From: Candidatus Micrarchaeota archaeon
GTDB lineage: Archaea > B1Sed10-29 > JAJRYS01
DNA: 46,266 bases
Direction of reading: 5' to 3'
Assembly (NCBI GenBank): GCA_964496415.1
Contig: CAZBZN010000002.1
Coordinates: 1-46,266, forward strand
In this document: piece by piece, positions 1-15,068 of the stretch
Layout of the letters: the number at the start of each line of letters is the position of its first letter
Position numbering within the stretch: the first letter of the stretch is position 1
Made by a program: the position numbers and the translations under genes
The notes under the pieces: model-generated
Told to the model about the DNA's origin: nothing
The model's database searches: none
The model's input: the letters and a program-made list of their open reading frames with translations, nothing else

Positions 1-1363
<1,363 letters not shown>

Positions 1364-1394
1364 TTCCAAAACCACCCAGCATATTTCATATTGA

Positions 1395-1515
1395 AGCGGG
1401 GCGCGGGATTTGAACCCGCGTAGCTCGGTTTCTGTCAGAGCGCCTGCAGCTTCACCTTTCCAGACCCTTTATAGGGTCATAGAAAACGAGTGCATAGCCA
1501 CTCTGCCAACCCCGC
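1395..1515 (-). tRNA. Intron-containing tRNA, 121 nt; isotype ambiguous (Cys-GCA with two introns, or Arg-UCU with one 50-nt intron)
   Basis: GC-rich island. Acceptor GCGGGGU/GCCCCGC, D-arm GCAG-AGUGGCU-AUGC, T-arm GCGGG-UUCAAAU-CCCGC, discriminator U. There are 59 nt between the anticodon-stem halves CUCG and CGAG instead of 9. No CCA is encoded. Confidence 0.8.
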
Positions 1516-1550
1516 ATGCAGTAAAGCATGAAAATTCTCTTATTTAAACC

Positions 1551-13895: not shown

Positions 13896-15068
13896 TCACT
13901 TAATATAGTCAATTCCTAAGTCTTCTTCTACTTTTCCTTTTTCTAAGTCAAGGTAAGGGATCTTCCCTCCGGCAATCAAGACCATTGCTTGGATTGACTT
14001 CTTAGGCATTGAGTCATCAATCATTGCTCCCCAAATGATATGCGCGTTAGGATTAATCTTAGAAGCAACAGCTTCACAAATCACTTCTGCTTCTCTTAAA
14101 GTCATGTCAGACCCGCCGATCACGTTAATCAAAGCCCTGTCAGCCTCTGAAATGTCAACATCAAGTAAAGGAGAATTAAGCGCTTCTTCAACTGCTTCAA
14201 GCGCACGGTTTTCTCCTGTTGACTCTGCAGAAGACTCACCTAAGCCAATCATTGCAGCCCCGCCATTAGTTAAGACAGTTCTCACGTCAGCAAAGTCAAG
14301 GTTGACTAACCCTGGTTTTGTAACAAGCTCTGTTATCCCCTTAACAGCATTAGATAACACTTCATCAGCTACTTTAAAAGCAGCACTAAGAGGAAGCTCA
14401 GGAACTATTTCAAGCAACTTGTCATTAGGAATGACAATCACAGTGTCACATTCTTTCTTAAGCTTCCTTAACCCGCTTAAAGCATTCTCCATCCTCTTCT
14501 TTCCTTCTACTGAGAAAGGAAGAGTAACAATACCAACACTTAAAGCACCAACTTCCTTAGCTACTTGAGCAATTACTGGAGCAGAACCAGTACCAGTCCC
14601 ACCACCTAAACCGCAAGTGACAAAAACCATGTCAGCTCCATCAAGCACTTTAGCAATATCACTAATGCTCTCCTTAGCAGCTGCTTCACCTATTTCAGGA
14701 TTAGAACCAGCTCCAAGCCCACGGGTTATTTCTCTTCCTATAAGCACTTTCTTATCAGCAGGAGTAATAAGCAAGTGCTGTGCGTCAGTGTTCAAAGCAA
14801 TCAACTCAGCTCCATGAATTCCAATCTCACTCATCCTAGCCATGGTATTGTTACCAGAACCACCAGCACCAACCACTTTAATATTAGCCATCGCGTAATC
14901 CAAAGCAGCTTTTAATTCTTCATCAGAAATAGCTCCAACACCAGACTGCTTGACAGCTTTTGATTTCTTTGGTTTCCTATCATCTTCAGCAATTATTATC
15001 TTAGCATTAGGATTGTGTTTTGGTTTTTTAGCAGCTGCTTCAAGAGCTTCCTTCACAAGTCTTTTCAT
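13896..15068 (-). CDS. ftsZ: Cell division GTPase FtsZ
   Basis: GAGGSGNN and the tubulin signature [19 protein letters not shown] Shine-Dalgarno upstream. Confidence 0.93.

Follow-up and report, generated by a model that had tools for sequence, protein, structure and literature searches.

A tRNA-like gene of 121 nt, carrying 50 surplus nt in its anticodon arm, lies beside cysS near the start of the 46,266-nt stretch of DNA analysed here (hereafter the window), and it raises the question of which tRNA is encoded and where the surplus would be cut out. The genome (G000 below; 687 kb, 41 contigs, 91% complete) is that of a DPANN archaeon; MAGs of the same family are labelled 'Candidatus Micrarchaeota archaeon' or 'archaeon', and the next relatives by CysRS are labelled Aenigmatarchaeota. 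The first-pass annotation had noted a 121-nt tRNA with 50 extra nt next to cysS. This was confirmed by the Pfam matches of cysS and by a minus-strand match at window 1515..1395 to the Rfam tRNA family RF00005 (E 9e-05, gathering threshold 29 bits, model positions 1-71). No other Rfam match was found in the window, and in this one 52 nt are aligned as an insertion within the anticodon loop.

The remaining features that had been listed for the gene are likewise seen in the sequence. The acceptor stem is GCGGGGU/GCCCCGC, the D stem GCAG/AUGC and the T arm GCGGG-UUCAAAU-CCCGC; the variable loop has 4 nt, the discriminator base is U and no CCA is encoded. The anticodon-stem halves CUCG (gene 26-29) and CGAG (gene 89-92) have 59 nt between them, gene position r, counted from the 5' end, being window position 1516 - r. 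The gene ends 31 nt ahead of the cysS ATG (window 1363) on the same strand, as had been stated. Two ways of removing the surplus had been put forward, a single 50-nt intron at 37/38, which gives tRNA-Arg(UCU), and two introns, both taken to be non-canonical, which give tRNA-Cys(GCA). We consider it very probable that the locus is a tRNA-Cys(GCA) gene with two bulge-helix-bulge (BHB) introns, 36 nt at 30/31 and 14 nt at 37/38 (Table 1). The genome yielded no tRNA-Cys besides this one.

Table 1. Predicted features of the tRNA-Cys and cysS locus, in window coordinates
Feature	Position	Strand	Description and evidence
tRNA-Cys(GCA), whole gene	1395..1515	-	121 nt precursor, 71 nt spliced; RF00005 38.8 bits; ARAGORN 118.6 on in-silico spliced form
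Exon 1, tRNA nt 1-30	1487..1515	-	acceptor 5' strand, D arm, CUCG; BHB enumeration and motif-free alignment to G007
Intron 1, 36 nt, non-canonical 30/31	1451..1486	-	BHB geometry
Exon 2, 7-nt micro-exon GCUGCAG, tRNA nt 31-37	1444..1450	-	anticodon GCA at 1447-1445
Intron 2, 14 nt, canonical 37/38	1430..1443	-	BHB geometry; 3' context common to G001 and G002
Exon 3, tRNA nt 38-73	1395..1429	-	A38, CCGAG, 4-nt variable loop, T arm, acceptor 3' strand, U73
TATA-like box TTTAAATA	1541..1548	-	25 nt upstream of tRNA nt 1; read from sequence
cysS (cysteinyl-tRNA synthetase)	2..1363, runs off window start	-	Pfam tRNA-synt_1e E 2e-115, DALR_2, CysS_C

Three independent routes agree on the junctions: an enumeration by BHB geometry, a BHB-splice screen combined with ARAGORN, and a spliced alignment that uses no motif. 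For the enumeration we considered all 6,902 one- and two-intron removals of 50 nt that restore a 17-nt anticodon arm, kept those with a 5-bp stem and U33, and scored them for a 4-bp central helix, for 3-nt bulges cut after the second nucleotide and for flanking helices. The highest BHB score was that of a Cys-GCA form with junctions between gene positions 29 and 30 and between 65 and 66 for the first intron (4/4 central pairs, 6-bp inner helix), and between 72 and 73 and between 86 and 87 for the second. In the genome-wide screen 555,886 BHB candidates were spliced out and ARAGORN was run on every product, which recovered Cys(gca) at this locus with a 36-nt intron and a 14-nt canonical intron at a score of 111.2; false positives in the same screen reach about 108, so that the margin is small. 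The motif-free alignment to the intron-less ortholog of G007 interrupts the gene after positions 29 and 72, by exactly 36 and 14 nt. It should be noted that in an unfiltered listing 121 nt yield dozens of chance BHBs with 3 of 4 central pairs and short flanks, and for this reason the junctions rest on the constrained enumeration and on the motif-free alignment. Elsewhere in the window, a 'tRNA-Ser/Pro' call at 14620-14709 on the minus strand (score up to 108.0) was discarded; the call falls on the GGGTGTG motif of an FtsZ-like coding sequence, where there is no match to Rfam.

In the predicted spliced product the anticodon arm, CUCGG-CUGCAGA-CCGAG, consists of a stem of 5 bp and a loop of 7 nt with U33. 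The identity elements for CysRS are the anticodon GCA and the discriminator U73, and both are present (window 1447-1445 and 1395, respectively). Among the products spliced in silico, the Leu and Arg(UCU) forms scored 114.0 and 113.3 with ARAGORN, below the Cys form. Running ARAGORN on the window had been suggested as a check: the default mode gave no call anywhere in the window, and the intron mode gave a spurious Leu(TAA) with a 52-nt intron, which we rejected on its 4-bp stem, its missing BHB and its orthologs, all of which are Cys. A C/D-box RNA was also set aside as improbable, as the AUGA and CUGA boxes fall in separate introns and the introns are too short. A search for further tRNA-Cys or tRNA-Arg(UCU) genes had been proposed as well. 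The genome-wide BHB-splice and ARAGORN screen found no other tRNA-Cys in G000, a regular-expression search for a second one returned only noise, and a separate Arg(UCU) gene was found on contig C9 at 14178-14247.

This separate gene, with its perfect anticodon arm GCGGC-CUUCUAA-GCCGC and its T arm, makes it unnecessary to read the present locus as tRNA-Arg(UCU) with one 50-nt intron at 37/38. That reading does yield a well-formed loop, UUUCUAA, its spliced form is accepted by ARAGORN, and the Rfam alignment sets the entire insertion in the loop. However, it forces a U31.C39 mismatch, as had been pointed out when it was proposed and as we saw in the enumeration, and the BHB at its junction has 2 of 4 central pairs and no flanking helices. 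Further, the syntenic orthologs upstream of cysS are all Cys(GCA), and G000 would be left without a tRNA-Cys. We therefore reject it as scarcely credible. The flanks of the insertion had also been described as a continuous 10-bp helix; the CUCGUUUUCU/AGAAACCGAG helix does exist in the precursor, but it is not continuous, having 9 pairs and one internal U.C mismatch.

For tRNA-Cys(GCA), a 36-nt intron after position 30 had been put forward, and the enumeration, the genome screen and the motif-free alignment all returned the same junction. The splice sites had been called not obvious, which does not apply to this intron (gene 30-65): a clear BHB is predicted for it. The central helix pairs CACU (1492-1489; gene C24A25C26U27) with GGUG (1456-1453; G60G61U62G63) over 4/4 positions, and the two 3-nt bulges are CG^U (1488-1486; gene 28-30) and AA^G (1452-1450; gene 64-66), where ^ marks the cut. 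The inner helix has 6 bp (1485-1480/1462-1457) and is followed by a 6-bp hairpin (1478-1463). As the outer helix is only 1 bp, a single G-C pair, the predicted motif is HBh'-like rather than a strict hBHBh'. From the base composition, and with the junctions fixed by homology, the chance of 10 consecutive pairs in this BHB is about 0.38^10, or roughly 7e-5. A fold constrained to hold the motif lies 2.6 kcal/mol above the minimum free energy (MFE) fold, and its formation melts one D-stem pair and two anticodon-stem pairs. A metagenome pattern scan for diverged copies gave 35 matches, 33 of them unrelated and 2 identical, so that the copies found provide no covariation support for the intron 1 BHB. 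Among the relatives examined, none has a 30/31 intron; it was seen in G000 only.

Intron 2 (gene 73-86, GCGCUCUGACAGAA) has a less complete motif. Its central helix, CUGC (1449-1446; gene 67-70) against ACAG (1435-1432; gene 81-84), has 3 bp and a C.A mismatch, the 3-nt bulges are AG^G (gene 71-73) and AA^A (gene 85-87), and the inner hairpin has 2 bp only. The 5-bp anticodon stem serves as outer helix and is whole only once intron 1 is gone; the enumeration credited the motif with 3/4 central pairs, 2 bp inner and 1 bp outer. Both predicted BHB motifs are thus of a relaxed and not a strict kind. The 3' splice context ACAG-(A/U)A^A is common to G001, G002 and this gene, and because it marks the 3' boundary of the canonical intron in those two relatives we place the cut before A38, which gives a mature loop CUGCAGA. 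As the two relatives share this context, we take the 14-nt intron to be a shortened form of an ancestral canonical intron.

The first-pass annotation had thus chosen the right isotype and the right number of introns, and its second junction, given as 38/39, is one nucleotide off; it follows that only intron 1 is non-canonical, and not both introns as had been claimed. A cut at 38/39 (or 39/40) would leave the mature loop CUGCAGG with G38. It lies one nucleotide from ours, and it restores the same perfect stem CUCGG/CCGAG and obtains the same ARAGORN score of 118.6. The BHB for this placement has 1/4 central pairs and neither inner nor outer helix, against 3/4, 2 and 1 for the cut at 37/38. Moreover, A38 is found in all seven orthologs of the order that have the CUGCAGA loop (G001-G004, G006, G007 and G014), and the shared context in G001 and G002 puts the cut ahead of it. 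We find the shifted placement very unlikely and retain 37/38. As a separate observation, CGCUCUG of intron 2 (1442-1436) is complementary over 7 bp to CAGAGUG on the 5' side of the D arm (1505-1499), both on the minus strand; this pairing is present in the MFE fold of the precursor, and it may be due to chance or may represent a precursor-specific fold.

Further we compared the locus with its relatives. In 10 of the 15 other genomes of the order with a cysS match, a tRNA-Cys(GCA) lies directly upstream of cysS (G001-G007, G009, G013 and G014), and the same order is found at three Aenigmatarchaeota MAG loci. The two genes share a strand and lie 30-150 nt apart, an arrangement kept across several families of this DPANN order. 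The predicted spliced tRNA-Cys of G000 is colinear with the orthologs and aligns to them without indels, and the micro-exon matches GCTGCAG of the intron-less orthologs base for base. Compared with the closest relative, G004 (CysRS 83% identical), 7 of 71 tRNA-Cys positions differ, and the differences include, within the anticodon stem, two compensatory changes (27-43 C-G vs U-A and 28-42 U-A vs C-G).

The number of introns varies within this syntenic gene. None is present in G006, G007, G009, G013 and G014, one at or near 37/38 in G001, G003, G005 and at loci L068 and L119, two in G000 and tentatively at L069, and three, in the D-loop, at 37/38 and in the T-loop, in G002 and G004. This range of 0, 1, 2 and 3 introns in one syntenic gene among close relatives offers a natural series for the rate of tRNA intron gain and loss in DPANN. 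The three-intron genes lie at L060:1241-1475 (G002) and L057:1230-1477 (G004); their T-loop introns, at about 59/60, are 80-102 nt long and have conserved ends (CAGCCGUAUCCGGCUGGCGGG ... CAGCUAGGCGGCGAGAAA) and differing middles. At L069:1395-1499 (Aenigmatarchaeota MAG JAWBWS010000001.1) the surplus consists of about 20 nt near 27/28 and 12 nt at 37/38, and the two-intron reading of this gene, to which ARAGORN gave only 107.2, is tentative.

Two independent contigs from metagenomes, Ga0190314_1004745 and Ga0190313_1007134, contain the same 121 nt unchanged, and hence the gene is no assembly artefact. Over 2.8-4.5 kb these contigs share 99.8-99.9% identity with the window, with 2 and 10 differences. 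They also bear on the possibility that the locus is a decayed tRNA-like pseudogene whose insertions are never removed. The relaxed splice motifs would fit such a pseudogene, as would the sole EndA of the genome, which is of the alpha4-like type reported to need strict motifs. Yet the gene is unchanged in both strain variants despite their 2 and 10 SNPs in the rest of the alignment, its exons are intact and colinear with the orthologs, many other tRNAs of G000 are interrupted likewise, and no other tRNA-Cys was found in this 91%-complete genome, which encodes CysRS. We hold decay to be extremely unlikely. As a functional tRNA-Cys(GCA) gene, the locus would supply the otherwise missing tRNA-Cys, and without it the organism would seem unable to decode Cys.

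The other interrupted tRNAs were found by the same BHB-splice screen. They include Ser(tga) on contig C27 (45 nt at about position 30, score 124.8), Gly(gcc) on C5 (53 nt in the T-loop, 124.1), Arg(tcg) on C26 (28 nt at about 62, 123.7), Gly(tcc) on C5 (34 nt in the D-loop, 122.4), Ala(ggc) on C27 (52 nt at about 22, 121.5), Asp(gtc) on C1 (56 nt at about 26, 114.8) and Trp(cca) on C9 (two introns, 111.9). A Leu(GAG) candidate and several more were recovered as well; the high-scoring interrupted tRNAs lie on contigs C1, C5, C9, C26, C27 and C32 of the genome. It appears from these predictions that a large share of the tRNA genes of G000 is disrupted. A blastn-short search for paralogous copies of the tRNA-Cys introns in G000 gave chance matches of at most 13 nt. 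The Arg(UCU) gene on C9, as called, has the acceptor mismatches A1.C72 and C7.C66, and its D arm is poor; another non-canonical intron probably separates the called part from the true 5' part, which would then lie further upstream.

To splice such precursors the genome encodes one recognisable endonuclease. EndA is a 188-aa open frame at 3373-3936 of contig C18 (reading frame at L065:1219-1785, C18:3373-3939) that has both the N- and the C-terminal domain, with matches to PF01974 (E 3.6e-33) and PF02778. In the alignment to the alpha4 EndA of M. jannaschii (PDB 1a79), the only gap is one residue long and lies outside the C-terminal half, and the Tyr-His-Lys triad is conserved; judging from its sequence, the enzyme is made of one alpha4-like unit. 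It has no counterpart of the insertion found at the catalytic His in ARMAN-2 EndA. No second EndA or subunit was found in G000 with Pfam at E values up to 0.1 or with tblastn at E up to 10. Over the Pfam cut-off, the four family relatives G001-G004, and also G007, have one EndA gene each; an extra match in G004 (E 0.056, 12.9 bits) is far below the threshold. RtcB is encoded on C1 at 58132-59424 (PF01139, E 7e-174).

We propose the following pathway, deriving the splice sites, the excision and its order from sequence. Transcription would start from the TATA-like box (window 1548-1541), which is likely to be the archaeal promoter of tRNA-Cys; a sigma-70 promoter scan found nothing, as expected for an archaeon. 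EndA would then cut within the 3-nt bulges of the BHB of each intron. Intron 1 is probably excised first and intron 2 second, because the BHB of intron 1 is self-contained, whereas that of intron 2 gains its full outer helix only with the removal of intron 1. RtcB would join the exons, CCA would be added afterwards, since none is encoded, and the resulting tRNA-Cys of 71 nt with U73 would be charged by the CysRS encoded downstream. There is no clear terminator between tRNA-Cys and cysS in G000 (window 1363-1395), and co-transcription of the two genes is possible.

Interrupted tRNA genes of this kind are already known in archaea, and apart from the points raised above and below the locus adds an unremarkable further case. 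Introns at position 30/31, canonical and non-canonical introns in one gene, and up to three introns per gene have been reported (PMC4090602, PMC3239211), which bears out the earlier statement that multi-intron tRNAs with non-canonical sites are documented, 30/31 included (PMC4090602). In Pyrobaculum islandicum, tRNA-Pro(UGG) is interrupted at 25/26, 37/38 and 56/57 (Sugahara 2007/2008, reviewed in PMC4090602). The multi-intron tRNAs of Thermoproteales and other Crenarchaeota resemble the present gene in combining a canonical 37/38 intron with a non-canonical one, in having a BHB at each junction and in being missed by default finders. They differ in that the Crenarchaeota belong to TACK and have an (alpha-beta)2 EndA with a Crenarchaea-specific loop, whereas we find a single alpha4-like EndA in a DPANN archaeon. 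Nor is there, compared with the Crenarchaeota, any sign of intron transposition, as G000 holds no paralogous intron copies.

A closer parallel is Candidatus Micrarchaeum acidiphilum ARMAN-2, whose pre-tRNA-Cys(GCA) has a 13-nt intron at 59/60 that is cleaved in vitro by an epsilon2 EndA (PMC3239211). Here too an ultrasmall DPANN archaeon has a tRNA-Cys(GCA) split at a non-canonical site, with relaxed BHB variants. The likeness in position is with the T-loop intron of G002 and G004, while G000 has no T-loop intron, and the ARMAN-2 EndA is a three-unit epsilon2 enzyme of 395 aa in contrast to the 188-aa single unit of G000. EndA of the alpha4 type is reported to need a strict motif (PMC3239211). 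DPANN lineages with alpha4-type EndA and more tRNA gene disruption have been described, a trait linked to an insertion in loop L3 (Kaneta et al. 2018, PMC5829648). G000 is like these lineages in pairing an alpha4-type EndA with many non-canonical or multiple introns, but judged against the M. jannaschii EndA alignment its enzyme appears to have no such insert.

The predicted relaxed motifs are thus found with only a plain alpha4-like EndA, a mismatch with the textbook correlation that we regard as mildly unusual. By that correlation, motifs of this sort call for an (alpha-beta)2, an epsilon2 or a loop-bearing enzyme. Further, we speculate, though we think it rather unlikely, that in this DPANN family the plain single-unit enzyme processes relaxed motifs independently of their position, with ordered splicing around a 7-nt micro-exon carrying the anticodon. 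The motifs in question would be HBh'-like at 30/31 and near a bulge-helix-loop at 37/38. If this is true, an as yet undescribed determinant underlies the substrate breadth of EndA in this lineage, and it could be an enzyme-internal change or help from the fold of the pre-tRNA, for example the 7-bp pairing of intron 2 with the D arm. Together with the single alpha4-like endonuclease, the series of tRNA-Cys genes forms a substrate-enzyme pair for testing enzyme architecture against splice-motif stringency.

The EndA gene itself has an uncommon 5' end. Upstream of the conserved N-terminal domain the frame contains no ATG, GTG or TTG, the first such codon being at residue 53, and a TATA-like GTTTAAATAAGA lies about 25-30 nt ahead of an in-frame ATA, which suggests that the EndA mRNA may be leaderless with a non-standard start codon. 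The GTTTAAATAAGA motif precedes both tRNA-Cys and the EndA gene of this genome.
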